IMG/VR virus record: IMGVR_UViG_3300023174_000061
Strand: one strand, 5' to 3'
DNA from: a virus
DNA: 64,000 bases
Shown: positions 29,482-59,651 of the stretch, one piece after another
How positions within the stretch are numbered: the first letter of the stretch is position 1
How the letters are laid out: the number at the start of each line of letters is the position of its first letter
The notes under the pieces: generated by a model
Told to the model about the DNA's origin: nothing
Databases searched by the model: none
Seen by the model: the letters and a program-made list of their open reading frames with translations, nothing else
Translations under genes and position numbers: made by a program

Positions 29482-29517
29482 TATAACTTATCTTCAACCC
29501 TAACAGAGTGATTATAG
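29482..29517 (-). repeat. 36-nt element, copy 1 (exact reverse complement of 59616-59651)
   Basis: Minus strand reads CTATAATCACTCTGTTAGGGTTGAAGATAAGTTATA. Confidence 0.9.
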
Positions 29518-29539
29518 ACACATTCTGTGTAGTTGTCAA
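29511..29539 (-). promoter_or_regulatory. Perfect sigma70-type promoter on the minus strand (antisense to the gene block)
   Basis: Minus strand reads TTGACA (29539-29534), N17, TATAAT (29516-29511). Confidence 0.75.
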
Positions 29540-29562
29540 CTATTGCTATTGTGTGTTATAAT
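29533..29562 (+). promoter_or_regulatory. Sigma70-type promoter for gp55
   Basis: TTGTCA-N18-TATAAT with an extended TG motif. Confidence 0.55.
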
Positions 29563-29580
29563 AAGGAAAAGTAATTAATT

Positions 29581-30066
29581 ATGTTAATTTCAAAAATGAA
29601 TAAGGTAAAGAAAAATCCACATTATGTAAATAATAAAGATTTTCACGATGCTTTGGTAAATTATAAAATTAAAGTAAATTCGGCAAAGGAAAAAGGTTTA
29701 CCTAATCCAATCATTCCGAATTATCTTGGTGATTGTTTTCTAAAAATTGCAACTCATTTATCATATCGTCCAAACTTTGTGAATTATATGTTCCGTGAAG
29801 ATATGATTTCTGATGGTGTTGAGAATTGCGTTCAGTATATCAATAATTTTGATGTAGAACGTACAAATCCATTTGCGTATTTTACGCAGATTGTTTATTA
29901 TGCTTTCTTGCGTCGTATTCAGAAAGAAAAAAGACAAATGGAAATCAAAGAAAAAATTCTTGAGAAAAGTGGTTTCGACCAAGTATTTTCTGTTGATGGT
30001 GATGGATTTAGTTCTTCTGACTATAATACAATCAAAGAAAACATTCAAATGAAACAATATCAATGA
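29581..30066 (+). CDS. gp55: Late-transcription sigma factor gp55
   Basis: HYVNNK, YRPNFVNY..REDMISDG.ENC, NPFAYFTQI.YYAFLRRI.KEK motifs. Confidence 0.95.
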   Translation: MLISKMNKVKKNPHYVNNKDFHDALVNYKIKVNSAKEKGLPNPIIPNYLGDCFLKIATHLSYRPNFVNYMFREDMISDGVENCVQYINNFDVERTNPFAYFTQIVYYAFLRRIQKEKRQMEIKEKILEKSGFDQVFSVDGDGFSSSDYNTIKENIQMKQYQ

Positions 30067-31106
30067 AAATTGGATTGATAACAGACAGTCACTATGGGTT
30101 CCGCAAAGCAAATAAAGCGTTTCACGAGTATTTTGCTAAATTTTATGATGAAATCTTTTTTCCAACATTAAAGAAAAATAAAATTAAAACAGTCATTCAT
30201 TTGGGTGATGCTTTTGATAGTCGTAAGGGTATTGATTACTGGGCTCTCGATTGGGCAAAAGAAAATGTTTATGATAGATTTCAAGATTTAGGAATTACTG
30301 TTTATAATATTGTAGGAAATCACGATGCTTATTACAAAAATAGTAATGAAATCAATGCAATAGATACACTTCTTCAACAATATTATAATGTAGTTAGAGT
30401 TTCAAAACCAACAGAATATAATATTGAAGGAATGGAAGCAGTTCTTCTTCCTTGGATATGTACTGATAATGAAAAAGAAACTTTTGAACTTCTTGATAAC
30501 ACAAAAGCAAAAGTTGTTTTTGGTCATCTTGAATTGAATGGATTTTCAGTTTATCCAGGACAATATCAACAGGAAGGATTGGATAAAAAGGTATTTCAAA
30601 AGTTTGATAGAGTTTATTCGGGACATTATCATACTCGTAGTGATGATGGAAAAATCTTTTATCTCGGAAATCCATACCAAATGTTTTGGAATGATTTAAA
30701 TGATAAAAGAGGATTTCATATCTTTGATACGGATGACTATAAATTAGATTACTATCAAAATCCTCATACAATGTTTGAGAGAGTTTATTATGAAAATAAT
30801 AATCCAAAAGATTTTGACGCATCTTATTTGACCGATAAAATGGTTAAAATCGTTGTTCGTCAAAGGGATGACTATAAGATGTTTGATAAGTTTGTTGACG
30901 CAATAGTTAAAGCAAATCCATTAGAACTTAAAATTATTGAGAATGTTGATGTTTATGATGAAGATGTAAATTATGATGAAATCCCTACAGAGGATACATT
31001 GAGTATTTTGGATAAATATGTGGAAGAGTCTGAATTCGAATTAGACAAAAACACAATCAAAAAACTTTTAAGGGAATTTTATAGAGAAGCATTGGAAGTA
31101 GAATAA
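30063..31106 (+). CDS. gp47: Recombination endonuclease gp47 (Mre11-like)
   Basis: DSHYG, HLGD.FD, GNHD, GHYH metallophosphoesterase motifs. Confidence 0.95.
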   Translation: MKIGLITDSHYGFRKANKAFHEYFAKFYDEIFFPTLKKNKIKTVIHLGDAFDSRKGIDYWALDWAKENVYDRFQDLGITVYNIVGNHDAYYKNSNEINAIDTLLQQYYNVVRVSKPTEYNIEGMEAVLLPWICTDNEKETFELLDNTKAKVVFGHLELNGFSVYPGQYQQEGLDKKVFQKFDRVYSGHYHTRSDDGKIFYLGNPYQMFWNDLNDKRGFHIFDTDDYKLDYYQNPHTMFERVYYENNNPKDFDASYLTDKMVKIVVRQRDDYKMFDKFVDAIVKANPLELKIIENVDVYDEDVNYDEIPTEDTLSILDKYVEESEFELDKNTIKKLLREFYREALEVE

Positions 31107-31393
31107 TGTTTATACTCACCATTTTAGAAAAAGAAGAAGAAGGTGCATACGCAGTAACCGATGCTAATGGTGAGAAAGCATTATATTTTTTTGAAGAAGA
31201 GGATGATGCTGAAAGGTATGCTGGTCTTCTAATGGCTGAAGATTATCCAGAAATGACTGTGATAGAAGTTGATGATGAAATGGGAATAAAGACTTGTGAG
31301 ATGTATGGATATAATTATGTTATAATTAGCCCAAATGAATTTGTGATACCACCAAGAGATTATGATACTATTCAAACGAATCGCATATCGTAA
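31106..31393 (+). CDS. Conserved hypothetical acidic protein (95 aa)
   Basis: FEEEDDAERYA.LL motif; lies between gp47 and gp46. Confidence 0.7.
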   Translation: MFILTILEKEEEGAYAVTDANGEKALYFFEEEDDAERYAGLLMAEDYPEMTVIEVDDEMGIKTCEMYGYNYVIISPNEFVIPPRDYDTIQTNRIS

Positions 31394-33080
31394 TTTTCTT
31401 TCTTCTGGAAATCAACCAACAGAAATAAAATTTACAGATACGCAAACTACTTTAATTGTCGGTGCAAATGGTTCAGGTAAGAGCACAATGTTGGATGCTC
31501 TTTGCTTTGGATTATTCAATAAAGCATTTCGTAAAATTACAAAAGGGCAATTAGTCAATTCGACCAACGAAAAGGAATGTTTGGTTGAAATTGATTTTAG
31601 TATTGGAACAAAGGAATATAAAATAAAAAGAGGTATTAAACCAACTATTTTTGAAATTTGGATTGATGGTGTCTTGCAAAATCAAGCAGCATCATCAACA
31701 GACCAACAAAAACAACTAGAAGATAGTATTTTAAAATTAAACTATAAGTCATTTACTCAAATTGTAATTTTGGGTAGTGCTTCTTTTGTGCCTTTTATGC
31801 AATTATCTACGGCAAATCGTAGAGAAGTTGTAGAAGATTTATTGGATATAAAAATCTTTTCTGCAATGAATGCAGTGATTAAAGATAGAATTAAAAATAC
31901 AAATGATAAAATTAAAGAATTTTCTTTAAAGCAATCTATGACCGAAGAAAAGGTTGAGATGCAAAAGGAGTTTATTGAAAGTATTGAAAAAAGTGGTAAA
32001 GAAAATATAGAAAAGAAAAAAGATAAAATCACTTCTATTACCACTTATATCGACCAATTAACAGCAGAGAACGTGCAGAAGGTAGAGGAAGTATCAAATA
32101 ATCTTCAACCCCAATTAGAGAACCTTTTAGACGCATCTAAAAAGTTAAAACAACTTTCAAACTTAAAAGGTAAAATATCTGAAAAAGTATCAAGCATTAC
32201 AGAACAACATAAGTTTTTTAATAATAACTCGGTATGCCCTACTTGTACTCAAACCATTGAAGAAGAATTTAGATTAAATAAAGTAAGTGAATCTGAAACC
32301 AAAGCAAAGGAACTTCAGCAAGGTTATAATGAATTAAAAGAAGCAATTCAACAAGAGGAAAAAAGAGAACGTGAATTTAATGTCGTTTCAAAAGAGATTA
32401 GTTCTTTAAATAATGAAATTTCTAATAACAATGTTAAAATTTCCCAACTTAATAAACAATCAAAAGACCTGGACCAGGAAATTCAAGACATTACCAACAA
32501 AATTAAAAACAGAAATACTGAAAGAAAAGTATTAAATGAATTAGAACAAACTTTAGATTTAATTCAAACTGAAAAAGCAAAGAATAAAGAAGATGTTTCT
32601 TATTTTGACTTTGCCCATTCCTTAATGAAAGATGGTGGTATTAAAGGTAAAATTATTAAGAAGTATCTTCCTCTTATGAACCAGCAGATTAATAAGTATC
32701 TGCAGATGATGGATTTTTATATTAATTTTACTCTTGATGAAGAGTTTAATGAAAAAATCAAATCTCCTATTCACGAAGACTTTACATATGAAAGTTTTAG
32801 TGAAGGTGAAAAGATGAGAATTAATCTTGCTATTCTTTTCACTTGGAGAGAAATCGCAAGAATGAAAAATTCAGTCAATACCAATCTCCTTATTTTGGAT
32901 GAGGTATTTGATAGTTCTTTGGACTTTATGGGAACGGACTACTTTACAAAAATTATTAAGTATGCGATAAAAGATACTAATATATTTGTGATTTCACATA
33001 AGACAGACGAATTGATTGATAAGTTTGATAGAGTTGTTAAGTTTGATAAGGTTAAAGGATTTAGTAAAATGGTTGACTGA
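31362..33080 (+). CDS. gp46: Recombination ATPase gp46 (Rad50-like)
   Basis: GANGSGKST, zinc hook CPTC, FSEGEK signature, LLILDEVFD. Confidence 0.96.
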   Translation: MILFKRIAYRNFLSSGNQPTEIKFTDTQTTLIVGANGSGKSTMLDALCFGLFNKAFRKITKGQLVNSTNEKECLVEIDFSIGTKEYKIKRGIKPTIFEIWIDGVLQNQAASSTDQQKQLEDSILKLNYKSFTQIVILGSASFVPFMQLSTANRREVVEDLLDIKIFSAMNAVIKDRIKNTNDKIKEFSLKQSMTEEKVEMQKEFIESIEKSGKENIEKKKDKITSITTYIDQLTAENVQKVEEVSNNLQPQLENLLDASKKLKQLSNLKGKISEKVSSITEQHKFFNNNSVCPTCTQTIEEEFRLNKVSESETKAKELQQGYNELKEAIQQEEKREREFNVVSKEISSLNNEISNNNVKISQLNKQSKDLDQEIQDITNKIKNRNTERKVLNELEQTLDLIQTEKAKNKEDVSYFDFAHSLMKDGGIKGKIIKKYLPLMNQQINKYLQMMDFYINFTLDEEFNEKIKSPIHEDFTYESFSEGEKMRINLAILFTWREIARMKNSVNTNLLILDEVFDSSLDFMGTDYFTKIIKYAIKDTNIFVISHKTDELIDKFDRVVKFDKVKGFSKMVD

Positions 33081-33101
33081 CCTTTGGTTTTTTGGTATGA
33101 T
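33073..33101 (+). promoter_or_regulatory. Sigma70-type early/middle promoter
   Basis: TTGACT-N17-TATGAT. Confidence 0.65.
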
Positions 33102-33115
33102 TGGTAAAGATTACT

Positions 33116-33526
33116 ATGACTTTCTTTACTATGTTTGGACCTGAGGACGAAAAAAATTTTAATGAGTTTACAGTAAAACTCGATGAAATAACTGGTTTAA
33201 TTGATGTTACAAAAACTCCTGTGAATATGCCCGAAAATAAAAATGCTAATGGTTTCTGGAAATACAATGAAGATAAAATCCTGAAACAACTAGAACACTA
33301 TATTGCTGGTACTTATAGTCAGCATTATGTAGATAGAACTGGTGGTGGAACAGAACAAACCCTCGATAAGATTAAACACAATCGTCGTGAAGGATTTTGT
33401 GCTGGTAACATTACCAAGTATACTGACCGATATGATACAAAAGGAACTCCTCGTGCTGACTTGTTTAAAGTTCTGCACTATACTATTCTTTTGATTAATC
33501 ATCTCAATCTTGTTGAAAATAAGTGA
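33116..33526 (+). CDS. Conserved hypothetical protein (DUF3310-like); start uncertain
   Basis: KYNED.IL..L..YI..TYSQHY and GFC.GNI.KY..RY..KG motifs. Confidence 0.65.
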   Translation: MTFFTMFGPEDEKNFNEFTVKLDEITGLIDVTKTPVNMPENKNANGFWKYNEDKILKQLEHYIAGTYSQHYVDRTGGGTEQTLDKIKHNRREGFCAGNITKYTDRYDTKGTPRADLFKVLHYTILLINHLNLVENK

Positions 33527-33543
33527 AAATTAAACCCCAAACT

Positions 33544-34209
33544 ATGAAACTTTCTGAATCTACTATTACTATTCTAAAAAACTTTTCTTCAATCAATCAG
33601 TCTATTTTGGTTAAGGAAGGTTCTAAACTCCGCACAATTTCTGTGATGAAGAATATTCTTGCTGAAGCAGAAATTAAGGAAGAATTTCCAAAGAACTTTG
33701 CGATTTATGACCTCAACCAATTTCTGAATGGATTAGGACTACATCAAGACCCTGACCTTGATTTTGAAAATGATTCTCACGTTATTATTCGTGAAGGAAA
33801 ACGTCGTGTAAAGTATTTCTTTGCTGACCCAGAAGTTATTGTATCTCCACCAGATAAAGAAATTACACTTCCATCTAGTGATGTTTGTTTTCAACTAGAG
33901 CATTCACAACTCGATAAACTCATCAAAGCAGCAGCAGTTTATCAACTTCCCGACCTTTCTGCTGTTGGTGAAGCAGGTGTAATTCGTTTGGTTGTTCGTG
34001 ATAAGAAGAATGATACTTCTAACGAATACTCTATCGTTGTTGGAGAAACCGATAAGGAATTCACTTTCAACTTTAAGGTAGAAAACATCAAGATCATTCC
34101 TGGTTCTTATGATGTGGTCGTGTCGGAAAAACTTCTGTCTAAATTCACAAATGAACGTTATAACCTTTCTTACTGGATCGCTTTGGAACCTGACTCCAAT
34201 TTTTCTTGA
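33544..34209 (+). CDS. gp45: Sliding clamp gp45
   Basis: MKLSE.T..ILKNFS.IN.S, FAIYDLNQFL, YWIALE motifs. Confidence 0.95.
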   Translation: MKLSESTITILKNFSSINQSILVKEGSKLRTISVMKNILAEAEIKEEFPKNFAIYDLNQFLNGLGLHQDPDLDFENDSHVIIREGKRRVKYFFADPEVIVSPPDKEITLPSSDVCFQLEHSQLDKLIKAAAVYQLPDLSAVGEAGVIRLVVRDKKNDTSNEYSIVVGETDKEFTFNFKVENIKIIPGSYDVVVSEKLLSKFTNERYNLSYWIALEPDSNFS

Positions 34210-34289
34210 TTTTTAATTTTATATTATGAATATTTTACATTTGTAAGTATTCTTTTTTATAAATAGTTATGTAGTTGGAAGACAATCAA

Positions 34290-34871
34290 ATGTATTGCTT
34301 GGAATGTAATTCTCCTCTTGGAAAAAGACAAAAAAAATTCTGTTCTTGTAAATGTATGAATGTGTATAATGCAAGAGAATTTGGTATGAAGCACCGAGAA
34401 GAAAATCCAAATAGATACAAAATTTGTGAAGAATGCAATCAATCATTAAATCTCAATAAGTTTAGTTTAATTGAAAAATGGAATCCAAATTCTGACACTA
34501 AAAATACTTGTAAAAAATGTTCCGCAAAATTAAATGAAAAAAATAGAAGAGATAGAGATTGGAAAGTTGATGCTGCCAGACTTCTTTATAGTAATATAAA
34601 ATCAAGATGTAAAAGATTAGGAAGAGAATTCTCTATTGAGATGGAAGATATTATCATTCCAGAAAAATGCCCTGTATTTGGATTTGAATTAAAAAGAGAA
34701 GATAGGCAAACTTGGATGTGTGCTCCAAGTGTTGATAGAATAGACAGTTCCAAAGGGTACATAAAGGGAAATGTTACAGTTGTCAGCAGAAGAGCAAACA
34801 TCATCAAAAGAGATGCTACATTAGAAGAGTTAGAACAATTATTTAATTATTACAAAACTTTGAGGAACTAA
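34290..34871 (+). mobile_element. Free-standing His-Me finger (HNH/endoVII-like) homing endonuclease with Zn-finger N-terminus
   Basis: CxxC clusters; CPVFG...PSVDRIDSSKGYIKGNV.VVS.RAN.IK; own late promoter TATAAATA at 34258-34265. Confidence 0.8.
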
Positions 34872-34873
34872 CT

Positions 34874-35413
34874 TTGAATATATTCGTTAATGATTTGTGC
34901 CCCGTTCTTTCTGCGGTGGCACTTCCTGACAAATTAGTAACAAAAATGCCTGTTGAGACCTGTCAGATGATTTCCGTCATCTACTCTAAATGGTATTATA
35001 ACTGGGGAACTATTCCCAAAAAGGATGGAACCCCTTATAGTACTGAGAAGGGAGCATTCCGAAATCATCCTTGTACTGTGTGGGCAGCAGAGAACTATGA
35101 AAACCTTGCCTGGTTAATTCGGCACGGTTATGCTCTTTGTAATGAGTATCGGCATCGTTATGGTAAAGTTCATTCTTGCTTTGATAGTCTTTTAGCAGCA
35201 GAAGTTATCTTTCTGGATAACTCGCAAGAAAGTCTTGAGATTTATAAGAATGTAAAATCTTTTACTCGTGCTATGCCTGATGAGTTCAAACTTGATGAAA
35301 GTATTGATACTCCAACAGCATATCAAAAGTATGTTGCGTCTAAACCTTGGGTAAAGGACAATTACCTAAAAATTCCTGATAGAATGCCAAATTGGATTTA
35401 TAATTATGCGTGA
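34874..35413 (+). CDS. Pyrimidine-dimer DNA glycosylase / DenV-family-like protein (TTG start)
   Basis: MNIF...A..LPDK...KM..ETCQM, NHPCTVWA, LCNEY..RYGK.H, AMPDEFK motifs; RBS GAGGA. Confidence 0.75.
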   Translation: MNIFVNDLCPVLSAVALPDKLVTKMPVETCQMISVIYSKWYYNWGTIPKKDGTPYSTEKGAFRNHPCTVWAAENYENLAWLIRHGYALCNEYRHRYGKVHSCFDSLLAAEVIFLDNSQESLEIYKNVKSFTRAMPDEFKLDESIDTPTAYQKYVASKPWVKDNYLKIPDRMPNWIYNYA

Positions 35414-36350
35414 AGATTTTTTGTGGGTGGAAAAATACCGTCCAAAAACTATTGAAGATTGTATTCTTCCTGATAACATCAAGAAGACTTTTAATGACTT
35501 TCTAAATAAAGGTGAAATTCCAAATTTGCTTCTTGCTGGTCCTCCTGGTGTTGGTAAGACTACAGTAGCAAAAGCACTATGTAATGAATTAGGAGTAGAT
35601 TTTTATGTCATTAACGGATCCGACGAAGGACGTTTCCTGGATACTGTACGAAACCAAGCAAAGAACTTTGCTTCGACCGTCTCACTTCAAGGAACTGGTA
35701 AACACAAAGTCATCATCATTGATGAAGCTGATAACACAGGCAACGACGTACAACTCTTACTACGGGCGAATATTGAGGCATTTTATAACAACTGCCGATT
35801 TATCTTCACCTGTAATTACAAAAACAAAATCATTGAACCCCTCCACTCCCGATGCGCTGTTGTTGAGTTCAGCATTAGAGGAAAAGAAAAAGCTCAGTTG
35901 GCGGGATCCTTCTTTAAGCGTTTACAAGATATATTGGATGCAGAAGGCGTCCGATATGATCCGAAAGTACTTGCCCAACTGATAAATTCTCATTTTCCTG
36001 ATTGGAGGAGAGTTCTTAATGAGTGCCAAAGGTACTCTGTTGCGGGAGAAATAGATAGTGGAGTTCTTGCATCTTTTTCTGATGTTGCTGTAAATGACCT
36101 TATTACTCATCTCAAAAGTAAAAACTTTTCTGAAGTCCGAAAGTGGGTGGTCGCCAACTTGGACAACGATCCTGCTGTCGTTCTTCGTAGGGTGTATGAC
36201 GCCTGCTATGATTGTCTTTCACCCCAAACTATCCCTGCTGCCGTTCTTATTGTTGCTAAGTACCAATACCAAATTGCGTTCGTGGCTGACCAGGAAATTA
36301 ACCTATTAGCAGCACTTACAGAAATTATGTGTGAGTGTAATTTCAAATGA
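35406..36350 (+). CDS. gp44: Clamp loader large subunit gp44
   Basis: LWVEKYRP, GPPGVGKTT, IIIDEAD, PLHSRC motifs. Confidence 0.97.
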   Translation: MREDFLWVEKYRPKTIEDCILPDNIKKTFNDFLNKGEIPNLLLAGPPGVGKTTVAKALCNELGVDFYVINGSDEGRFLDTVRNQAKNFASTVSLQGTGKHKVIIIDEADNTGNDVQLLLRANIEAFYNNCRFIFTCNYKNKIIEPLHSRCAVVEFSIRGKEKAQLAGSFFKRLQDILDAEGVRYDPKVLAQLINSHFPDWRRVLNECQRYSVAGEIDSGVLASFSDVAVNDLITHLKSKNFSEVRKWVVANLDNDPAVVLRRVYDACYDCLSPQTIPAAVLIVAKYQYQIAFVADQEINLLAALTEIMCECNFK

Positions 36351-37012
36351 AAAGAAATCAAAAAGTAGTTGTATTTAAATATGTTGAAAATAATTTTTTA
36401 TACGGTAATTTGATTTTAGTTTGTAGTGCTTTTGGTGGTGAACATTGGTATCTTAAGGTAAGAAAAATTAAAGAAAATACACTTACATCTAAGATTGATA
36501 TCAATAAATCTTTAAAGTTGACAGCACAAGAAGTTGATATTAATAGTCCAAGATTAAAAAATGCTGCTTTAGAAGTTCTAGCAGAAATTAAATCACAGCA
36601 TTATAAGCAGTGTGATGAAATATTTTATGATGAAGATATGAGATTTCTCAATAGGCAAATGTCGTTGGGGAGGATATCTGAAGATAAATTTAAAAATCTA
36701 ATGATGCATAATGGATACGAAGTTTTAAAACCAGTTGAAGATATTTGGGGATATGATTTTATAGTCAAAAGGGGAACTGTTTATGAAACAGTTCAGTGCA
36801 AATGTACTGCTAGACTTCAAAAACATTTTTCTATACAAAATAAAAAAGGAATACCATATAAGAATATGGTATCTCATATGGCATTTGTTCATTTACCTTC
36901 TTCTGAGGTTTATTATGTTCCTACAAAAATTCTTCCCGATACTACTAAGGTGAGATTGGATCATAGTTATTTGAAATATAAAGTTGGACTTTCTATTGGT
37001 GATGAACAATGA
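36347..37012 (+). mobile_element. PD-(D/E)XK endonuclease (I-Ssp6803I/PDDEXK_5-like), probable free-standing homing endonuclease
   Basis: G..SE..F......GY.V..P......YDFIV........VQCK motif; inserted between gp44 and gp62 with ATGA overlaps on both sides. Confidence 0.6.
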
Positions 37013-37167
37013 GACCTGAAACAAGAGAGGCAATGGAAATGCTTTTTACTGCTAAGTGGAATCTCCCAAAGGCAGCACAGTATTGTAATCTTACTCATAA
37101 GGAATGTAAGATCGTTTTTAATGAGTATTGTAATTTTCATCCAGCAACTTATACGAATGAAAATTGA
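37009..37167 (+). CDS. Small conserved hypothetical protein (52 aa; below ORF-track cutoff)
   Basis: MRPETREAMEMLFTAKWNLPKAAQYCNLTHKECKIVFNEYCNFHPATYTNEN; overlaps both neighbours. Confidence 0.65.
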   Translation: MRPETREAMEMLFTAKWNLPKAAQYCNLTHKECKIVFNEYCNFHPATYTNEN

Positions 37168-37543
37168 ATTGAAGGATTGGTTGAACTCAATCAATCAAAA
37201 TAAAAAGAATATTATGGACGAAGACCCTTCCTCCATAAAGGAGTATGCTCCTTATATTATTAATAGATGTTTATCGGGACATATTGATTGTTTAATGTAT
37301 GCAAATGAGATGAATAAGTTCTCCTCATTGGATAAAAAACTTCAATATGATTTTTTTATAAATATAATCAGGAAAAAGAAGAGATTCTCTCCTTGGTTAA
37401 AACAAGAAAAAATTAAAGACCTTGAAATTGTTAAATCTTACTATGGTTATAGTAATGAGAAGGCAAAGCAAGCTTTGAGAATTCTAACAAAAACACAACT
37501 AGATTTTATAAAATCAAAACTTGAAACTGGAGGAACAAAATGA
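37157..37543 (+). CDS. gp62: Clamp loader small subunit gp62
   Basis: LKDWLNSIN, PYIINRCLS, ANEMN, YYGYSNEKA motifs; likely start MKIELK. Confidence 0.92.
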   Translation: MKIELKDWLNSINQNKKNIMDEDPSSIKEYAPYIINRCLSGHIDCLMYANEMNKFSSLDKKLQYDFFINIIRKKKRFSPWLKQEKIKDLEIVKSYYGYSNEKAKQALRILTKTQLDFIKSKLETGGTK

Positions 37544-37983
37544 GTGTTGTAAATGAACCTATTGTGATTTGGTCGCAAGACCAAATGGTTGAAGTGATTT
37601 TGAATGAACCTGATGATTTTTTGAAGGTTCGTGAAACACTCACTCGTATTGGTGTCGCATCACGTAAAGAAAAAAAGATTTATCAATCTTGCCATATTCT
37701 TCATAAGCAAGGTCGATACTATCTCGTACATTTTAAAGAACTGTTTGCACTCGACGGCAAACACGCAAATCTTACTGTAAATGACGTACAACGTCGTAAT
37801 CGCATTATTCAACTTCTTGCTGATTGGGGATTGATTACAATCGTCAAACCAGAAGGTATTACTGATATTGCTCCATTAAATCAAATCAAAGTTCTTGCTT
37901 ACAAGGACAAAGCAGATTGGATTCTGGAGACCAAATACAATATTGGTGCTAAAAAGAAAAGGGTAGAAGAGGAAACCGAATAA
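37540..37983 (+). CDS. regA: Translational repressor RegA
   Basis: DDFLKVRETLTRIG, QSCHILHKQGRYY.VHFKELF.LDG motifs. Confidence 0.97.
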   Translation: MSVVNEPIVIWSQDQMVEVILNEPDDFLKVRETLTRIGVASRKEKKIYQSCHILHKQGRYYLVHFKELFALDGKHANLTVNDVQRRNRIIQLLADWGLITIVKPEGITDIAPLNQIKVLAYKDKADWILETKYNIGAKKKRVEEETE

Positions 37984-37984
37984 G

Positions 37985-38016
37985 AAAATGGGGAGAACAA
38001 CACTCCCCATTTTTTA
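37985..38016 (+). terminator. Intrinsic terminator after regA
   Basis: AAAATGGGGAG-loop-CTCCCCATTTT followed by a T tract. Confidence 0.8.
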
Positions 38017-38089
38017 TGTTCTTTGATATATACTAATGATGTTGCCTTCGGGGACATTATAAACTTACAGACGCTCAAGGAGGTCTATT

Positions 38090-50967: not shown

Positions 50968-51197
50968 TGAAAGAATCTACTCTAGACAGAATTATTTCAA
51001 TTGTAAGACACTATATTGTTGAAGATGGAATGTCTGTATCTGCTGCTCCTACAAATTCTACAAACCCACCAGGACAAATAAATATTGCAGGTCTTCCACC
51101 AGATAATCCTCCAGTAAAAAAGAAAAATAAAAAAAATATATTTTTAGGTAAAGGTTCTCGTAAAAACTGGATGCAAAAAAGAAAACCTCCACAATAA
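50967..51197 (+). CDS. Small basic hypothetical protein
   Basis: 76 aa; IVE|D..APTN..IAGLPPD.PPV followed by a Lys-rich tail. Confidence 0.6.
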   Translation: MKESTLDRIISIVRHYIVEDGMSVSAAPTNSTNPPGQINIAGLPPDNPPVKKKNKKNIFLGKGSRKNWMQKRKPPQ

Positions 51198-51205
51198 TCA
51201 ATCCA

Positions 51206-51598
51206 ATGTATAGTCCCTCTCAAACAATAGAAACAAAGGTTGCAATCCTTGAGGAGAAGATCCATACAAGCGAACAGTTGATGCAACGTATTGAGAGTGC
51301 GATTGAAAAGATAAGTGAAGTAAATGCAAATGTAACTAAAATGCTTGTAGTTCACGAAGAAAAAATTAATAATGGGGAAAAGATTGAAGATATACTCTTC
51401 ACAAAGATGGATCAGTTGAAAGATAAGATGGATAAGGATCATACTGCAGTATTAACAAAGTTACAGGGATTGGAAAAAAAAGTTTGGGTAGGTATTGGAG
51501 TTCTTGCAGCAGTAAGTTTCACAATCAATAATTCAGAAATTCTGTCAAGTATCTTGACACAGACACAAGACAACGGTAGAATAGAGAGACTGAAATAG
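51206..51598 (+). CDS. Coiled-coil protein with C-terminal transmembrane segment
   Basis: Heptad pattern followed by LEKKVWVGIGVLAAVSF. Confidence 0.65.
   Translation: MYSPSQTIETKVAILEEKIHTSEQLMQRIESAIEKISEVNANVTKMLVVHEEKINNGEKIEDILFTKMDQLKDKMDKDHTAVLTKLQGLEKKVWVGIGVLAAVSFTINNSEILSSILTQTQDNGRIERLK
51554..51582 (+). promoter_or_regulatory. Sigma70-type promoter for primase-nrdAB, embedded in the upstream ORF
   Basis: TTGACA-N17-TAGAAT. Confidence 0.7.
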
Positions 51599-51610
51599 TA
51601 TTCTTTTGTA

Positions 51611-52612
51611 ATGAGTTTTGTTGATTCCAAATATATCGGGTTGGTTTCTTCCCGACTGGATAAGTTTGCTAAGAAAAAAGAAGGTCTTTATAACTTTCGA
51701 TGTCCTTACTGCGGTGATAGTCAAAGGACAAAGAGTAAAACGAGAGGGTATATTTACCAATTAAAGAATGATCACAATTTCAAATGTCATAATTGTGGGA
51801 CTTCTAGAACATTTACAAACTTTCTAAAAGATATGGATGCTGTTCTTTACGATCAGTATGTAATGGAAAGATATAAAGAAGGAACAACTGGAAGAGGATC
51901 ACAAACAAAGACACCTGAATTTAATTTTGAGAAACCAAACTTTTCAAAAAAAGCATTTGACCTCCCTACCATCGCAGAACTAAATAAAGAACACTCCGCA
52001 AGAAAATACCTAGAGGATAGAAAAATACCCAACAACTATCTGCGTGAATTGTATTTTTGTGAGAAGTTTAAAGAATGGACGAATACTCAAAAACATACCT
52101 TTGATAAAGTAGAAAAGGACGAACCACGAATTATTATTCCTTTAATTAACAAAGGAGAAATATTTGGATTTCAAGGTCGCAGTTTAAATAAAAACTCAAA
52201 GGTAAAATACATCACAATTATTCTTGATGATAAACATCCAAAAATTTATAATTTAGATAAACCGGATTATGACAAAATTGTTTATGTTGTTGAAGGACCA
52301 ATTGATAGTATGTTTTTAGATAATTCAATTGCTATGGTTGGTGCAGACATTGACAAAATGTTTTTTGTTTCTAATTTTGCAACAGAATTTGTGATGGTAT
52401 ATGATAATGAAAAACGAAATAAACAAATTGTTGATAGAATGGAAAAAGCAATACAAATGCGATTTCCAATCGTCATTTGGCCAAATGACTTGAAAGAAAA
52501 GGATATTAATGATATGATCCTTTCAGGAATTGATGCCTCAAAAATCATCAAGGAAAATACTTATATGGGATTAGAAGCAAAAGCAAAACTTATTGGATGG
52601 AAACGAGTATGA
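51611..52612 (+). CDS. gp61: DNA primase gp61
   Basis: FRCPYCGDS...CHNCG zinc finger; FQGR; TOPRIM VEGPIDS, YDNE, KDINDM. Confidence 0.96.
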   Translation: MSFVDSKYIGLVSSRLDKFAKKKEGLYNFRCPYCGDSQRTKSKTRGYIYQLKNDHNFKCHNCGTSRTFTNFLKDMDAVLYDQYVMERYKEGTTGRGSQTKTPEFNFEKPNFSKKAFDLPTIAELNKEHSARKYLEDRKIPNNYLRELYFCEKFKEWTNTQKHTFDKVEKDEPRIIIPLINKGEIFGFQGRSLNKNSKVKYITIILDDKHPKIYNLDKPDYDKIVYVVEGPIDSMFLDNSIAMVGADIDKMFFVSNFATEFVMVYDNEKRNKQIVDRMEKAIQMRFPIVIWPNDLKEKDINDMILSGIDASKIIKENTYMGLEAKAKLIGWKRV

Positions 52613-54906
52613 GCAACGGTACAAAGGTAATTAAGAGAAGTGGTGATAATGAACCTCTTGATCTAAATAAACTTCACTTGATGGTTGAGGAGGCATGTAG
52701 AGACCTCTCTGGTGTTTCTGCATCACAGGTAGAGATGCAATCTGGTATTCAATTTTATGATGGAATTACCACAGCAGAAATTCAGGAGATTTTAATTCGT
52801 TCTGCTTCTGATTTGATTGATTTGGAAAATCCAAATTATCAATTTGTTGCAGCAAGACTACTTTTGTTTTCTGTGAGAAAATCTTTGTATGGAAGAGTTC
52901 AAGATCATCCTGCTTTTATAGATCACATTAAGAATTGTGTTGATGTTGGAGTGTACGATCCAGAAATTTTAACTAATTATACGAAAGAAGAACTTGATAG
53001 ACTTGGTAGTTATATCAAGCATAGTAGAGATTATCTGTTTACCTATGCTGGTCTTCGTCAAGTAGTTGATAAGTATTTGGTTCAAGACCGCAGTAGTGGA
53101 CAAGTATATGAAACTCCTCAGTTCATGTATATGATGATTGCTGCTACTATCTTTGCTAGATATCCAAAAGAAACACGTCTTTCATATGTAAAGAGGTATT
53201 ATGACGCAATTTCAAAACACAAAATCAACATTCCAACTCCCATCATGGCAGGAGTTAGAACACCTCTCAGGCAATTTGCTAGTTGTGTTCTTGTTGATGT
53301 TGATGACACCCTCGATAGCATCTTCAGTAGTGATATGGCTATTGGGAGGTATGTTGCTCAAAGGGCAGGCATCGGTATCAACGCAGGTCGCATCCGTGGA
53401 ATCAATGCTAAAATCAGAGGTGGAGAGGTACAGCACACAGGTGTGGTCCCCTTCCTTAAAAAGTTTGAGGCAACTGTGCGATGCTGCACACAAAACGGTA
53501 TTAGAGGTGGTTCTGCTACAGTCCACTTTCCTATCTGGCATCAAGAAATAAGTGATATTTTAGTCCTAAAGAATAATAAAGGAACCGAAGATAATCGTGT
53601 TCGTAAATTGGACTATAGCATCCAAATCTCTAAACTATTCTATGAAAGATTTATTAGAAACGAAGAAATCTCCCTATTCTCTCCACATGATGTTGCTGGT
53701 CTGTATGATGCTTTTGGCACTGATAGATTTGACGACCTTTATGTGGATGCAGAACGAAATGCATCTATTCCAAGAAAAACTATTGGGGGTCAAGAACTCT
53801 TTCTGGCACTTCTAAAAGAAAGAGCAGAAACTGGTCGTATTTACATTATGAATATTGATCACTGTAACTCACACTCTTCTTTCTTGGATAAGGTTGAAAT
53901 GAGTAATCTTTGTCAAGAGATCACACTTCCCACAATTCCACTTCAGCATATTGATGACCCTAATGGAGAGATTGCACTTTGTATTCTTTCTGCTATTAAT
54001 GTTGGTAAAGTAAAAGATGATGAAGATTTTGAGGATCTTTGTAATCTTTCTGTTCGTGGTTTAGAAGAATTGATTGATTATCAAAACTATCCTGTAGTTG
54101 CTGCAGAGATTGGAACTAAAGCACGTAGATCTTTGGGTATTGGTTATATTGGTTTAGCACATTATCTTGCTAAACTTGGATTTGGGTATGATACTCAAGA
54201 TGCTTGGGATGCAGTCCATCAATTGTCTGAATCATTCCAATATTTCCTTCTTAAAGCATCAAATGAAGTTGCTAAAGAAAAGGGTGCTTGTGAATATTTC
54301 AATCGCACCAAGTATTCTCAAGGTATTCTTCCAATTGATACTTACAAGAAAGATGTAGATGAAGTATCTTCCGTTCCACTTCAGCACGATTGGGAAGCAT
54401 TAAGACAATCAATTAAAGAGTTTGGTATTAGGCATTCTACTCTTACTGCTCAAATGCCATCAGAATCAAGTTCAGTAGTTTCAAATGCAACAAATGGAAT
54501 CGAACCTCCTCGTGGATTCTTATCAATTAAGAAATCTAAAAAAGGTCCTCTTAAGCAGATTGTTCCACAGTATCAACATCTTAAAAACAATTATACGTTG
54601 CTTTGGGATATGCCTAGCAATCGTGGGTATATTAATATTGTTGCAGTTATGCAGAAGTTCTTTGATCAAGCAATTTCTGGAAACTGGTCGTATAATCCAG
54701 AGAATTATGCCAATAATGAAGTTCCTGTTAGCGTAATGGCACAAGACCTTTTAACTACATATAAGTATGGTTGGAAGACTTCTTATTATCAGAATACATA
54801 TGATAATAAGACGGATGAAGTTAAGGAGGATAAAGCAAGTATTGACGATTTAGTTAAAGAACTTTTAGAAGGAGGAGAAGAAGATTGTGAATCCTGTAAA
54901 ATTTAG
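52609..54906 (+). CDS. nrdA: Class Ia ribonucleotide reductase alpha subunit
   Basis: ATP cone, PTPIMAG, SCV, SNLCQEI, MPSESSS, terminal CESCKI. Confidence 0.97.
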   Translation: MSNGTKVIKRSGDNEPLDLNKLHLMVEEACRDLSGVSASQVEMQSGIQFYDGITTAEIQEILIRSASDLIDLENPNYQFVAARLLLFSVRKSLYGRVQDHPAFIDHIKNCVDVGVYDPEILTNYTKEELDRLGSYIKHSRDYLFTYAGLRQVVDKYLVQDRSSGQVYETPQFMYMMIAATIFARYPKETRLSYVKRYYDAISKHKINIPTPIMAGVRTPLRQFASCVLVDVDDTLDSIFSSDMAIGRYVAQRAGIGINAGRIRGINAKIRGGEVQHTGVVPFLKKFEATVRCCTQNGIRGGSATVHFPIWHQEISDILVLKNNKGTEDNRVRKLDYSIQISKLFYERFIRNEEISLFSPHDVAGLYDAFGTDRFDDLYVDAERNASIPRKTIGGQELFLALLKERAETGRIYIMNIDHCNSHSSFLDKVEMSNLCQEITLPTIPLQHIDDPNGEIALCILSAINVGKVKDDEDFEDLCNLSVRGLEELIDYQNYPVVAAEIGTKARRSLGIGYIGLAHYLAKLGFGYDTQDAWDAVHQLSESFQYFLLKASNEVAKEKGACEYFNRTKYSQGILPIDTYKKDVDEVSSVPLQHDWEALRQSIKEFGIRHSTLTAQMPSESSSVVSNATNGIEPPRGFLSIKKSKKGPLKQIVPQYQHLKNNYTLLWDMPSNRGYINIVAVMQKFFDQAISGNWSYNPENYANNEVPVSVMAQDLLTTYKYGWKTSYYQNTYDNKTDEVKEDKASIDDLVKELLEGGEEDCESCKI

Positions 54907-56071
54907 AGTTACTGCAGAGAAAGAAAAAATGATTGAAGGAATAACTGTATTTAATACTCAAGATGTAGATGCCAAAAAGCAACCTATGTTTTTTGGTGCT
55001 CCTCTTGGAGTTCAAAGATATGATTCTTATAAGTATCCTGTCTTTGATAAATTGACTCAACAACAGTTGGGATATTTCTGGAGACCAGAAGAAGTTTCTT
55101 TACAGAAAGATCGTGGAGATTACCAATCTCTTCGTCCAGAACAAAAGCACATCTTCACTTCTAATTTGAAGTATCAAATTCTTTTGGACTCAGTTCAGGG
55201 TCGTGGTCCTGGAATGGCTTTTACTCCTTATTGCTCTCTTCCAGAATTGGAAGCGTGTATGAAGGTTTGGGAATTTATGGAGATGATCCATAGTCGTTCC
55301 TATACATATATTATTAAGAATGTTTACTCTGATCCAACGGAAGTTTTTGATTCCATTTTGAGTGATGAAAGAATTCTAGAAAGAGCATCATCAGTAACTG
55401 GTGCTTATGATGACTTTATTAATTCCGCACAACATTATGGGAACTCTAATCTTTGGATTCACGCACAAGAGGGTGCTGGAAGTGCAAAAGAAGAAAGATA
55501 TGAACTCAAAAGAAAACTTTATCGTGCTATAGCAAATGTCAATATTCTCGAAGGTATCAGGTTTTACGTCTCGTTCTCTTGCAGCTTTGCATTTGGTGAA
55601 CTCAAACTTATGGAAGGATCCGCTAAAATTATCTCTCTCATCGCAAGAGACGAAAATCAGCACCTTGTTATTACTCAAAACATCCTCAATAAGTGGCGTG
55701 AAGGAGATGATCCAGAAATGCAACAAATTGCTAAAGAAGAAGAGGAATGGGTAAAGGGTGCCTTTGAGAATTGTGTAAATGAGGAAAAGAGGTGGGCAGA
55801 ATATTTGTTTAAAGATGGTTCAATGATTGGATTGAACGACAAACTTCTTTGGAGTTATGTTGAGTGGATTGCTAATCGTCGCATGAGGTCTATTGGTATT
55901 AAACCAATCTATGATGTTGCTGCGAAAAACAATCCACTTCCTTGGACGGAGCATTGGATTAGTTCCAAAGGACTTCAAGTAGCACCACAAGAAACGGAAG
56001 TTGAAAGTTATGTAGTTGGTGGTATTAAACAAGACGTAGAAAAAGATACTTTTGCTGGATTTCAACTATGA
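54887..56071 (+). CDS. nrdB: Class Ia ribonucleotide reductase beta subunit
   Basis: FWRPEEV, LDSVQGR, E.IHSRSY, EGIRFYVSF, RDENQH, APQETE..SY motifs. Confidence 0.97.
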   Translation: MNPVKFRVTAEKEKMIEGITVFNTQDVDAKKQPMFFGAPLGVQRYDSYKYPVFDKLTQQQLGYFWRPEEVSLQKDRGDYQSLRPEQKHIFTSNLKYQILLDSVQGRGPGMAFTPYCSLPELEACMKVWEFMEMIHSRSYTYIIKNVYSDPTEVFDSILSDERILERASSVTGAYDDFINSAQHYGNSNLWIHAQEGAGSAKEERYELKRKLYRAIANVNILEGIRFYVSFSCSFAFGELKLMEGSAKIISLIARDENQHLVITQNILNKWREGDDPEMQQIAKEEEEWVKGAFENCVNEEKRWAEYLFKDGSMIGLNDKLLWSYVEWIANRRMRSIGIKPIYDVAAKNNPLPWTEHWISSKGLQVAPQETEVESYVVGGIKQDVEKDTFAGFQL

Positions 56072-56074
56072 TGT

Positions 56075-56099
56075 GAGGGGTTTCGACCCCTCTTTTTTT
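56075..56099 (+). terminator. Intrinsic terminator after nrdB, abutting late promoter TATAAATA (56099-56106)
   Basis: GAGGGGT-TTCG-ACCCCTC followed by T7. Confidence 0.85.
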
Positions 56100-56128
56100 A
56101 TAAATAAAAAAAAGTATTGTTTATTCAT

Positions 56129-57538
56129 ATGTCTGGAATTTCTAAGTTCAAACGAATTTACAGTGAAGGTGTTGCAGCAGAGCATCCAGATATTGCAGGG
56201 CAGAAAGAATTTGCGAATAAGGCAGATGAAATTTTAGCAAGAAGAAAAAAAGATAGAGCACAAAGTGGAAAAAATGCTAAACTAGATGCTATTGGAAGAA
56301 AGTTATATAATATGAATAAAATTGGAGAAGAAACTGAACTTGGTGAAGCACATTGGGACCCAGCAACCAAAACAATTAGTGATAAGAAAAGAACTGGAAC
56401 TGACCCAGAAATTCAAAAAATGGCTGCAAAAGCAGCAGCATCTGGACCAAAGAAAAGAAAACCACTTGGTTCAGTTCGTAAGAATAGTGCAGACTTTAAA
56501 CCTTCCTCACCAGAGCAAGCAAAGTCAGATATGAAGAGTTGGGATAGATATTGGGAAGGTTCTTGGAAGAATAAGAAAATGAATGAAAAGATTGATGTAG
56601 GTGCTGATGCTGGTGCGACAATCAGTGATTTCGTACATTCAAAAAGCAAAACTTTTAAGGGTGATAGTAAGAAGCAAAGAATTAAGAGAGCACTTGGTGC
56701 TTATTATGGAGCACAAAAAGAAGAAACAGAAAACATTTATGATTATGTAATTGAAGCATTAGTTGATGCTGATTTCGCACAAGATTATGAGACTGCTGAA
56801 AATATGTTTGAGTGTATGAGTGATGAATTTGTAGCAGTTATTTTTGAAGAATATATTGAAGAGAAGGCAAGAGGAACTAGACCAAAAAGAACAGTTCACG
56901 CATATGATGTGGATGAGACTTTATTCGGTCACGGCAAGAAAGGAAAACCAAACGTTCAGGTTCACGTAAAAGACGCATCTGGAAAAAGAGTTCAAAGTTT
57001 AAGCAATCAAGAGTTTAATACTCATAAACTTGATAAAGCTAAGGGACATTCTTATGATTTTAGTGAGTTTCAAAGTGCTAAAAAGTTTAAGGAAACTTCA
57101 AGTCCAAATAAAAAAGTAATCAAAGACGTTAAAAGAAAACAAGCAAGAGGACAAAACGTTCATATAATTACTGCTCGTTCAAAGTTTGATAAACCAAGTG
57201 AATTCCAAGGACATTTGAAGAAGCACGGTATTGATGTTCCTATGAATAAAATTCATTATACTGGTGGAATGAAAGGTAGTGATATTGGAAAGAAAAAAGT
57301 AGATGTTGCAAATGCAGTTGCAAAGCAGAGTGGTGCTAAAACAACTCATATGTATGATGATGCTGCAAAAGTTCATAAGGCATTTGAGAAAGAGAAAAAG
57401 AACAAACCAACTTCGGCAAAAATCAAAACTCATATGGTTGCACCAGACAAAAAGGGAGAAACTAAAGTTCGTTCTTATCAAGCAACAAAAAATGAAGAGA
57501 TGACTTCCTATGACTACTGGAAGCAATTTGTAGATTGA
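56129..57538 (+). CDS. Modular protein with C-terminal HAD-superfamily phosphatase domain; putative capsid-internal polyprotein
   Basis: HAD motif I YDVDETLF, motif II IITARS, motif IV MYDD; basic modules and an acidic spacer upstream. Confidence 0.65.
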   Translation: MSGISKFKRIYSEGVAAEHPDIAGQKEFANKADEILARRKKDRAQSGKNAKLDAIGRKLYNMNKIGEETELGEAHWDPATKTISDKKRTGTDPEIQKMAAKAAASGPKKRKPLGSVRKNSADFKPSSPEQAKSDMKSWDRYWEGSWKNKKMNEKIDVGADAGATISDFVHSKSKTFKGDSKKQRIKRALGAYYGAQKEETENIYDYVIEALVDADFAQDYETAENMFECMSDEFVAVIFEEYIEEKARGTRPKRTVHAYDVDETLFGHGKKGKPNVQVHVKDASGKRVQSLSNQEFNTHKLDKAKGHSYDFSEFQSAKKFKETSSPNKKVIKDVKRKQARGQNVHIITARSKFDKPSEFQGHLKKHGIDVPMNKIHYTGGMKGSDIGKKKVDVANAVAKQSGAKTTHMYDDAAKVHKAFEKEKKNKPTSAKIKTHMVAPDKKGETKVRSYQATKNEEMTSYDYWKQFVD

Positions 57539-57550
57539 TGGAGTAGGAAG

Positions 57551-57664
57551 ATGAATGAGGAGTTTCAAAAACCTCATAAAAAGAAAACTTTTTCTCAACA
57601 AGAGAAACTTTTGAAACTCCAAAAACTATTGAAAAAACTAGAAGACAAGAAGAAAAAAGAATAA
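57551..57664 (+). CDS. Tiny Lys-rich peptide (37 aa)
   Basis: MNEEFQKPHKKKTFSQQEKLLKLQKLLKKLEDKKKKE; GGAG/AGGA upstream. Confidence 0.4.
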   Translation: MNEEFQKPHKKKTFSQQEKLLKLQKLLKKLEDKKKKE

Positions 57665-57702
57665 ATAAGTATATAAAAGTACTTTTTACTGCTCCCAAGA
57701 AG

Positions 57703-59565
57703 ATGAATAAAAAAGATTTGGATGCTTTGAACGAGTTATATTCGAGTGTTTATAGTGGAGAGCAGTTAGATGAGGCTCCTGCACCTTGGGAAACAGAGGG
57801 GTTTCGGAAAAGTAATGCGGGAAAATTTGTTTCAAAAGTTTCAAATGCTGCCAGATCATTTGGAAATTATCTTGCTCCACCTGCTTCTGCATCTGCTAAT
57901 CCAAGTGTGAGAGCTGCGGCAGCAAGAGAAACTTCCGCAACAACACCTGCCAAGAAGATGGGATCTGAAGTTCCAAAAAGAATTTCACAGGCTCCAAGAC
58001 CCACAGCACTTCCACAAGCATCTACACCATCTACTGCACCAAGACCAGCAGCATCTTCAACTGTTCTTGCAAAACAAAAAGGAGTTGAAGGTAAGTTAGA
58101 TAAAGCAACTGGTAAGTTTACTGCTGGTGCGTTTAGTGGTGCAGAGAAGTCCCGTTATTCAAGTGTTGCTGTAAAAAATGCTGGAACACAATCTACAACT
58201 AATGATAAAGAAGCAAATATGGCAACGTGGGCAAAGGCAAATAAAAATATGATACAAAATGTTGGTACGTCATCCCAAAAAGCAATTCTTGCAAAATCAG
58301 AACCTTTAAAATCATTTACTACAAAACCACCTACTCCTGGTTCTGGTGCTCTTGCAAACGCAGTTACAACAGCAACAGCAAAACCACTTGATACTAATTT
58401 TAAATCTATAAATAATACAAAGCCCAAACCAACGACAATGACACAATCTTACGAATGGTCTTCTGCTAAAACTTTGAGAGATATTGCAGGTGCTTATAAT
58501 GAAATCTACGAAGCAAAGAAAAAAGTAGACCAAGATGAAGATGGTGATAATGACTTTGCGGATGTAAGAGTTGCAAGAATGATTGCTTCTGGTGTTCCCA
58601 AAGCAAAAGCAATTGCTATGGTGAAGAACAAATCTTATAATGAAGAAGTTGAACTTTGGGTAAATGAACTTTTAGAAGAAGGTTATGACCTAAGTGAATA
58701 TACTTGGGAAGATATGTTTGAGATTTATGAAGAAATTGAATATATTGAAGAAAGAGACGAAGGAAAACCAGGTTTGATGTTTAAGAAGATTGCTGCAAAA
58801 GCAGCAAAGAAATATGGTTCAAAAGAAGCAGGGAATAGAGTTGCTGGAGCAATTCGTAAGAAAGTTCTTGCGAATGAAGCAACTGCGATGACTAAGAGAG
58901 GTTATGATGAGACCGAAATTCGTAATAAGATTGCAAAATCAACAGGTGGTGGAAAATTTGCCGATAAAGCAACTGAATTAGAAAATAGACCAACTTTTGG
59001 AGATAAGTCAAAGCAAGCATCAAGAGAAAAACTTGCAAGAACGCAGAGAGGTGATTTCCGCAGAACAAATTCTTCTGATTATGGTCTTCGTTTGGGTGCT
59101 CATAAGTCCAATGATCCTGCCGTAAAAGCAAAGCAGGCAGCAAGAGGAAAGCAAAGAAGTCCTTTGACCCCTAAAGAGAAAAAGCAACTCAATAGAGAGG
59201 CATATGAAGCATACGAGTTTGTATCATCATATCTTCTTGAAAACAACTTCGCAACAACAGTTGATGACGCAAATGTAATTATCAACAATATGAGTGAGGG
59301 TTGGTTTGAAAGTATTATGGAAGAAAAGAAACCTCTTCCTATTGCTAAAATGAAAAGAAAAGAAACAAAATTTCTTGGTAGTGATGAAGAACACCTTGCA
59401 GCATTGAAGACACCTATGGGTTCTCCTGAAAGAAAAAAAGCAATGAAAAACCTTGAAAAATTTGATAATATCAATACAGCAAGAACAAGTATTTCAAAAA
59501 GAGGTGGAAAAGAACCACATCCAATGCCAGAAGTAGGTAGATATAAACCAAAATACGAAGATTGA
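57703..59565 (+). CDS. Modular basic/acidic protein (620 aa); putative capsid-internal polyprotein
   Basis: Alternating Ala/Lys/Pro-rich and acidic segments; LDE|A, IYE|A, IEE|R and IME|E junctions. Confidence 0.6.
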   Translation: MNKKDLDALNELYSSVYSGEQLDEAPAPWETEGFRKSNAGKFVSKVSNAARSFGNYLAPPASASANPSVRAAAARETSATTPAKKMGSEVPKRISQAPRPTALPQASTPSTAPRPAASSTVLAKQKGVEGKLDKATGKFTAGAFSGAEKSRYSSVAVKNAGTQSTTNDKEANMATWAKANKNMIQNVGTSSQKAILAKSEPLKSFTTKPPTPGSGALANAVTTATAKPLDTNFKSINNTKPKPTTMTQSYEWSSAKTLRDIAGAYNEIYEAKKKVDQDEDGDNDFADVRVARMIASGVPKAKAIAMVKNKSYNEEVELWVNELLEEGYDLSEYTWEDMFEIYEEIEYIEERDEGKPGLMFKKIAAKAAKKYGSKEAGNRVAGAIRKKVLANEATAMTKRGYDETEIRNKIAKSTGGGKFADKATELENRPTFGDKSKQASREKLARTQRGDFRRTNSSDYGLRLGAHKSNDPAVKAKQAARGKQRSPLTPKEKKQLNREAYEAYEFVSSYLLENNFATTVDDANVIINNMSEGWFESIMEEKKPLPIAKMKRKETKFLGSDEEHLAALKTPMGSPERKKAMKNLEKFDNINTARTSISKRGGKEPHPMPEVGRYKPKYED

Positions 59566-59593
59566 TATAATATTACAACCCATTAAGTACCCC

Positions 59594-59622
59594 TTGACAG
59601 GTGCTTTTTTTATGACTATAAT
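59594..59622 (+). promoter_or_regulatory. Perfect sigma70-type promoter overlapping a terminator-like hairpin
   Basis: TTGACA-N17-TATAAT; late TATAAATA follows at 59654-59661. Confidence 0.8.
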
Positions 59623-59651
59623 CACTCTGTTAGGGTTGAAGATAAGTTATA
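59616..59651 (+). repeat. 36-nt element, copy 2 (inverted relative to 29482-29517)
   Basis: CTATAATCACTCTGTTAGGGTTGAAGATAAGTTATA; identical to the reverse complement of copy 1. Confidence 0.9.

Follow-up and report, generated by a model that had tools for sequence, protein, structure and literature searches.

The window analysed here, a stretch of 64,000 nt (64 kb) from the virus record IMGVR_UViG_3300023174_000061 in IMG/VR, carries two exact copies of a 36-nt sequence in inverted orientation. On balance, the 36-mer was interpreted as the -10 and start-site region of a small family of early promoters, in which a short box at the transcription start probably serves as an element of joint control or of promoter escape. 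The element has a constant anatomy, is conserved among relatives, is always attached to a promoter in the same way and varies in copy number from genome to genome. The window came from a cyanophage-type T4-like myovirus; its DNA was ~66% identical to that of P-SSM2, S-SCSM1 and others, and no near-identical cultured phage was found.

The 36-mer, CTATAATCACTCTGTTAGGGTTGAAGATAAGTTATA, occurred exactly at 29482–29517 on the minus strand (site A) and at 59616–59651 on the plus strand (site B), and the inverted repeat reached 47 nt at 91% identity (29474–29520 and 59613–59659). No third copy with three or fewer mismatches existed in the window, and matches appeared in 0 of 100 shuffles. Both copies formed part of a perfect TTGACA-N17-TATAAT promoter, located at 29539–29511 on the minus strand and at 59594–59622 on the plus strand. 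Each promoter matched 12 of 12 positions, and the 17-nt spacers were within the range for sigma70-type promoters (-35 and -10 hexamers 16–18 nt apart). At site A, the -35 box was at 29534–29539 (its TTGAC was invariant in ~100 aligned relatives) and the -10 box at 29511–29516, and copy A comprised the -10 box and 29 nt downstream. Its start-site box, CACTCTGTTAGGGTTGA, with a dyad ACTCT/AGGGT, covered 29494–29510, and the start was predicted from spacing, ~7 nt past the -10 box, at G 29504. The corresponding positions at site B were 59594–59599 for the -35 box, 59617–59622 for the -10 box, 59623–59639 for the start-site box and G 59629 for the predicted start. The spacers of the two promoters were unrelated, and comparison of both sites showed that the -10 box and the adjacent downstream DNA were what they shared. 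The initial annotation had reported an inverted duplication ~30 kb apart, a perfect promoter at each copy and differing spacers, and all of this was borne out.

The initial annotation had counted a lack of conservation in relatives among the grounds for refuting its reading; instead, strong conservation was found. An exact 30-mer was present at 65 IMG/VR loci, in the same two contexts only (21 for site A and 44 for site B). Relatives were also fetched by protein, which avoided ascertainment bias, and yielded 80 loci of the GIY-YIG nuclease gene next to site B (73–97% identity) and 80 loci of gp55, the late sigma factor gene next to site A (68–95%). The promoter and the downstream block were present at 77 of the former and 75 of the latter. 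Sites A and B were conserved, with synteny, across hundreds of relatives, and site A was present in Syn9 and P-SSM2. A 57-nt query matched ~145 cultured records (Synechococcus, Prochlorococcus and 'Cyanophage'), in most of which no annotated feature covered the match. The element was not mentioned in Sullivan 2010, Puxty 2018, Thompson 2016 or the Clokie/Millard review, a set that did not cover the start-site study of Syn9 (Doron 2016).

An alignment of 101 sequences showed invariant TTGAC and TA.A.T hexamer positions, an invariant TG 6–7 nt past the -10 box and an invariant A at position 17. Measured over 70 distinct sequences of site A, the -10 box held 1.68 bits of information per position and the start-site box (the 17 nt directly after the -10 box) 1.36, compared with 0.37 in the spacer and 0.47 in the 18 nt following the box. 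The box retained 1.36–1.49 bits per position across relatives with gp55 identity down to 68%, and conservation faded ~17–25 nt past the -10 box. Because the information content was high in the -10 box and the start-site box and low in the spacer and the next 18 nt, what is conserved as a unit is the promoter together with the 17-nt start-site box nACTCTGTnAGGGTT(G/C)A.

When the alignment was turned into a covariance model, the two copies of the window stood out with scores of 66.8 and 64.8 bits, and no other stretch exceeded 13 bits. The other sigma70-type promoters in the window, the tRNA-Gly promoter included, were without the box. Every exact box found in the window, in Syn9 and in the relative G002 was immediately preceded by a -10 box, and none stood alone. 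In searches of whole records with the model, P-SSM2 had a single strong copy. Syn9 had two, site A (predicted start near 123,69x on the minus strand) and a copy ahead of gp88 (near 52,77x on the plus strand), and two complete IMG/VR genomes of 240–250 kb had three or four. The copies numbered 1–4 per genome, with four in a 239-kb relative, and their positions differed between genomes. The inverted pair was recovered in larger contigs of relatives, nine times at a distance of 30–38 kb and a tenth time at 106 kb. Other copies preceded small early genes or tRNAs. In a 4.4-kb phage-like contig binned as Lewinella (L283:2709–2867), a box promoter preceded a run of three tRNA genes by 74 nt, which indicated that this promoter class also serves tRNA arrays. 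Extra box promoters in G002 (at 234.5 kb; L241:1300–1558) and G001 (at 207.7 kb; L244:1300–1558) were directed, in antisense, against the 3′ end of a small plus-strand gene encoding ...EFIKLSGALEAL..., and the arrangement of site A was thus repeated at a third locus.

Copies within one genome resembled each other. Identity over the first 16 nt past the -10 box was 0.90 within genomes vs. 0.72 between genomes, and the spacers of same-genome copies were identical at 0.42. Syn9 had the variant ACACT in both copies, G002 had GTGGAGTTT in all four, and GAGTC..GAC was common to the copies of G001. This likeness fits occasional conversion or spawning of copies from site A, co-evolution with a trans-acting factor, or both.

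The genes of the window were strongly biased in strand, with 49 long frames on the plus strand and 6 short spurious frames on the minus strand. Around site A, the plus strand carried uvsY (27204–27632), uvsW (27613–29088), a gene for an Sm-like protein (29089–29478, labeled 'methylamine utilization' in GenBank), gp55 (29581–30066, with its ATG at 29581), gp47 and gp46. Site A was located within the 102-nt gap between the Sm-like gene and gp55 and pointed backwards, antisense into the 3′ end of the Sm-like gene. The sole minus-strand open reading frame (ORF) nearby, of 36 aa, began upstream of the predicted start, in agreement with the view of the initial annotation that the minus copy is antisense and has no gene to drive. 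A small ORF on the antisense transcript was also considered and rejected, as the reading frames differed between copies. Ahead of gp55, the plus strand carried a promoter at 29533–29562, which reads TTGTCA-N18-TATAAT and has an extended -10 of the TGn type. Together with site A it formed a back-to-back pair, the two -35 boxes overlapping on opposite strands inside the 13-nt palindrome TAGTTGACAACTA (29530–29542), which surrounds the site A -35 box and has no T-run. This opposite-strand gp55 promoter was kept in 58 of 66 distinct relatives. The 30 kb between sites A and B held the replication module, which contained the clamp loader/gp44, gp43 DNA polymerase, UvsX, a gp41-like helicase and NrdA, as well as gp55 and gp47/46.

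Site B was located after a 620-aa ORF and 64 nt ahead of the gene that it serves as promoter, which encodes a 148-aa GIY-YIG-only protein (59686–60132, plus strand; Pfam SegE_GIY-YIG, E 1e-51). A terminator-like hairpin, GTACC/GGTGC, occupied 59587–59611 on the plus strand, with the -35 box in its loop and a T7 run after it; in relatives its arms were AGCACC/GGTGCT.

Based on these arrangements, we propose the following scheme. A family member consists of TTGACA-N17/18-TAnAAT followed at a fixed distance by the 17-nt box, and the family would represent consensus host-sigma70 'early' promoters, 1–4 per genome, throughout the cyanophage-type T4-like myoviruses. Member A would be the ancestral, near-universal copy, firing antisense toward uvsW, uvsY and the late genes, and member B, after its terminator-like hairpin, would drive the GIY-YIG nuclease gene. 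The box may act on the promoter itself, either as an operator for a factor or as an initial-transcribed sequence tuned for escape, and in both roles a few promoters would be controlled together. Since two polymerases cannot sit on both overlapping promoters at once, occupation of A would shut polymerase out of the gp55 promoter and might help to time the expression of the late sigma factor. Meanwhile, A would make an early antisense ('anti-late') transcript.

The box contained an inverted repeat, ACTCT-GTn-AGGGT, centered on the TGT at the predicted start, with a T.G mismatch that is tolerable on the sense strand only. Pairing was kept in the variants GACTC-TGTG-GAGTT, GCTCTG-T-CAGAGC, AACTT-TGTCG-AAGTT, ACCTT-TGCT-AAGGT and CGCT-TTGCT-AGCG. 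When the right arms were swapped among 44 distinct sequences, the native mean was -2.11 kcal/mol vs. -1.54 ± 0.11 kcal/mol for permuted arms, and 0 of 2000 permutations reached the native value. The dyad was regarded as a real feature with modest support. Its left arm was upstream of the predicted start and, because of this position, an RNA hairpin was rejected; the leaders moreover folded no better than shuffles. A lambdoid sigma-dependent pause or Q-loading site was also rejected, as the -10-like TAGGGT becomes TGGAGT, TGGGTT or CAGAGC in other lineages.

Several observations weigh against a family under joint control. Same-genome copies differed in G001, G004, G005, and G011, so strict co-evolution with one factor was not supported, and no candidate regulator for the box was found. 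The dyad was weak (~-2 kcal/mol, with 49 of 200 shuffles folding equally well), and the arm-swap permutation ignores the relatedness of the sequences. Covariation in a fixed register was not significant (76.7% of cells paired vs. 76.6% in shuffles), and pairing was lost in several site B lineages. The register of the dyad also shifted by one base between lineages, which is a poor fit to a rigid dimeric DNA-binding protein and its operator. Metatranscriptomes from three freshwater or riverine libraries shared 5–7% of words with the window, and the RNA over 26000–34000 consisted of short unstranded contigs of relatives with 90–95% identity.

A more specific form of the operator role was also considered, namely that the box is bound by a phage-encoded timing regulator and that closing the box promoters would release gp55, which would constitute the early-to-late switch of cyanomyoviruses. 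To our knowledge, these viruses lack MotA, AsiA, Alt and Mod. This form is tentative and was given a rather low probability. The GIY-YIG nuclease itself was weakened as a candidate for the box-binding protein, as Syn9 and P-SSM2 keep site A and have their GIY-YIG gene in operons without the box.

Two other explanations for the conserved box, both unlikely, were compared with that of a small co-controlled promoter family. In one, the copies would be a copy-and-paste promoter cassette resembling the PeSLs of T4-type phages, alike by duplication and gene conversion, and the box would have no function of its own beyond belonging to a strong promoter that recombination spreads. The lineage variants common to same-genome copies in Syn9, G001, and G002 would be expected from such copying, extra copies occurred at different places in different genomes, and site B has the layout of a PeSL, with a terminator hairpin and a promoter (PMC4122927). 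However, the box held 1.36–1.49 bits per position while the adjacent spacer was free at 0.37, which indicated selection on the box itself. The identity also always began at the -10 box and never entered the spacer (0.42 within genomes), and the copies were few (1–4) and occupied syntenic core positions, rather than numbering dozens within hyperplastic regions. In the other, to which we would give equally little credence, the element would act at the RNA level. The shared 5′ end (GUUAGGGUUGAAGAUAAG...) would be a binding site or seed, with the neighboring Sm-like protein, RegA or a nuclease as candidate partners, or the site A antisense RNA would be directed against the Sm-like and uvsW mRNA. 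The predicted transcript was conserved from +1 to +11, with identity extending to ~+23 in the window lineage, and site A fires against the 3′ end of the Sm-like gene. Cyanophage S-PM2 has a documented antisense RNA, CfrI (PMC2984593). However, ACTCT, the most invariant part, was upstream of the predicted start, the sequence past +11 differed between lineages, and the leaders gave z scores of -1.1 and 0.0 against their shuffles. No Rfam family was found at either site (in a search of Rfam 15 at the gathering score, the tRNA-Gly at 63341–63412 was the only match in the window), the nearest minus-strand terminator-like site was ~1.7 kb away, and pairing between the box and the ribosome site of site B did not covary. 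As a fallback, the initial annotation had named a duplicated small RNA or protein-binding leader. A protein-binding leader is possible, whereas a discrete small RNA is unlikely because no terminator occurred within ~1.7 kb, no fold was significant and Rfam gave no match.

The initial annotation had also suggested paired R-loop replication origins of opposite polarity, at which the transcript would stay hybridized and prime leading-strand synthesis. In T4, oriF(uvsY) and oriG(34) combine a middle promoter that depends on MotA with an unwinding element downstream of it. The likeness lies in a promoter near uvsY and uvsW whose transcript need not encode anything: site A is a strong promoter without a gene, beside both of these genes, and sites A and B flank the replication module. 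Most lineages also had a non-template GGG at +5 to +7, and, from what is generally known of R-loops, the small non-template hairpin could favor persistence of the hybrid. In contrast to the T4 origins, no AT-rich unwinding element of the T4 type was found downstream of the promoter at either copy. The GC content of the downstream 40–100 nt was 0.25–0.30 vs. 0.337 for the window (percentiles 12–35), and the claim of AT-rich DNA after the minus copy was therefore not upheld. Conservation covered the -35 box, the -10 box and the next 17 nt and ended ~17–25 nt past the -10 box, without extending into the downstream DNA. The copy number was 1–4, the places varied between genomes, and copies drive the nuclease gene, gp88 of Syn9 and a tRNA array. 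The cumulative GC skew rose monotonically, without a turn at any copy, in the window, Syn9 and the 239-kb relative, and GC skew was uninformative as an origin marker. A single theta origin has been predicted for Syn9 (PMC2984593). None of these points is decisive. The absence of an AT-rich tract, the variable copies, the gene-driving copies and the lack of a skew turn did not support paired origins, which we consider very improbable. A gene-less promoter near uvsY and uvsW should not be read as a T4-style origin.

The leader of site B had further features. A T4-type late promoter box, TATAAATA, was found at 59654–59661 on the plus strand, within a hairpin AAGTTAT..ATAACTT. This sequence occurred 12 times on the plus strand of the window and 0 times on the minus strand. 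With this late box in its leader, the nuclease gene is probably served by a late promoter as well as by the early one. In relatives with a short site B leader (L095:1458–1515, L106, L115, L128 and others), a hairpin like AGCTCATA..TATGAGCT buried the GIY-YIG start codon directly 3′ of an ATAAATA late box, the same layout as in the translational mask of the T4 I-TevI type. A mask like those of T-even homing nucleases, in which the early leader would cover the ribosome site and transcription from a late promoter nested in that leader would give unmasked mRNA, was also considered for site B itself, where AGGGUU of the box can pair with GACCC before the AUG. The ACCC was kept when the box had GGAGUU, so this pairing of the box with the ribosome site found no support in covariation. 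About 1 kb past the 148-aa GIY-YIG gene, and beyond a tail-lysozyme-like gene (60468–61106), a 216-aa nuclease-like ORF (61207–61857) matched PHROG homing endonuclease family 314 and had a GIY-YIG-like motif at its start. Further downstream, in 63203–63412, the tRNA-Gly (TCC) at 63341–63412 was located behind a plain TTGACA-N17-TAGAAT promoter without the start-site box.

When 185,579 species genomes were searched for TANAATNACTCTGTNAGGGTT, 9 matches appeared, fewer than the ~17 expected by chance. Four of the nine were promoter-type and were located in phage-like contigs binned in metagenome-assembled genomes (MAGs) or single-amplified genomes. An operator of a host regulon was therefore rejected, with matches below chance and none on an evident cyanobacterial chromosome. 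The 15-mer AACTCTGTCAGGGTT was found after TAnAAT without a -35 box in L284:5440–5500 (minus strand), L285:6110–6160 (plus strand), L280, L287, and L288. These contigs were bacterial MAGs (unclassified, Candidatus Brocadia and Flammeovirgaceae), and two of them had the 15-mer as an arm of a long perfect palindrome. Its occurrence there may be a coincidence, as the matches were below chance expectation.

T4-like cyanophages are without the T4 proteins that reprogram the host RNA polymerase, and the timing of their early, middle and late expression is unsettled (PMC2984593). The promoter family described here is a family-wide non-coding element, unannotated in GenBank, which is located on the strongest host-type promoters and adjoins the late sigma factor gene in back-to-back orientation. 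It offers a concrete, mutable handle on cyanophage transcription timing.

Several known systems share part of this anatomy. In the T5 N25 and T7 A1 promoters, the initial transcribed sequence (~-6 to +20) governs escape and the ratio of abortive to productive transcription, and here the conserved stretch coincides with the part of the polymerase footprint past the -10 box. We know of no case in which the initial sequences of these promoters form a family-wide motif or a dyad, or vary in step within a genome. Operators overlap the transcription start in lac O1 and in the autorepression of I-TevI at its own promoter. The box resembles them in that its imperfect dyad is centered on the start site of a strong promoter and that one copy precedes a GIY-YIG gene; however, no binding protein is known here, the register floats by one base, and the GIY-YIG genes of Syn9 and P-SSM2 have no box promoter. 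The early 'anti-late' RNA of T4 arises from an early host-type promoter that transcribes against the coding strand, as site A would, and CfrI offers a similar parallel. CfrI of S-PM2 is a defined antisense RNA of ~225 nt at psbA (PMC2984593), whereas the transcript of site A is only predicted and has no predicted 3′ end.

The PeSL cassettes of T4-type phages are the nearest described objects (Arbiol 2010, PMC2839356; Comeau 2014, PMC4122927). PeSLs and the present family are both small repeated cassettes on near-consensus sigma70 promoters, copies can arise at new places, and site B has a terminator-like stem-loop at the promoter followed by a ribosome site and a gene. PeSLs occur in large numbers within hyperplastic regions, in association with indels, and few were found in a cyanophage study (PMC4503421). 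In contrast to such clusters, there were two copies in 64 kb here and 1–4 per complete genome, syntenic and flanking the replication module. In PeSLs the stem-loop and the promoter are conserved, whereas the universal copy A has neither a T-run terminator nor a gene, and the conserved addition is the box after the -10 hexamer.

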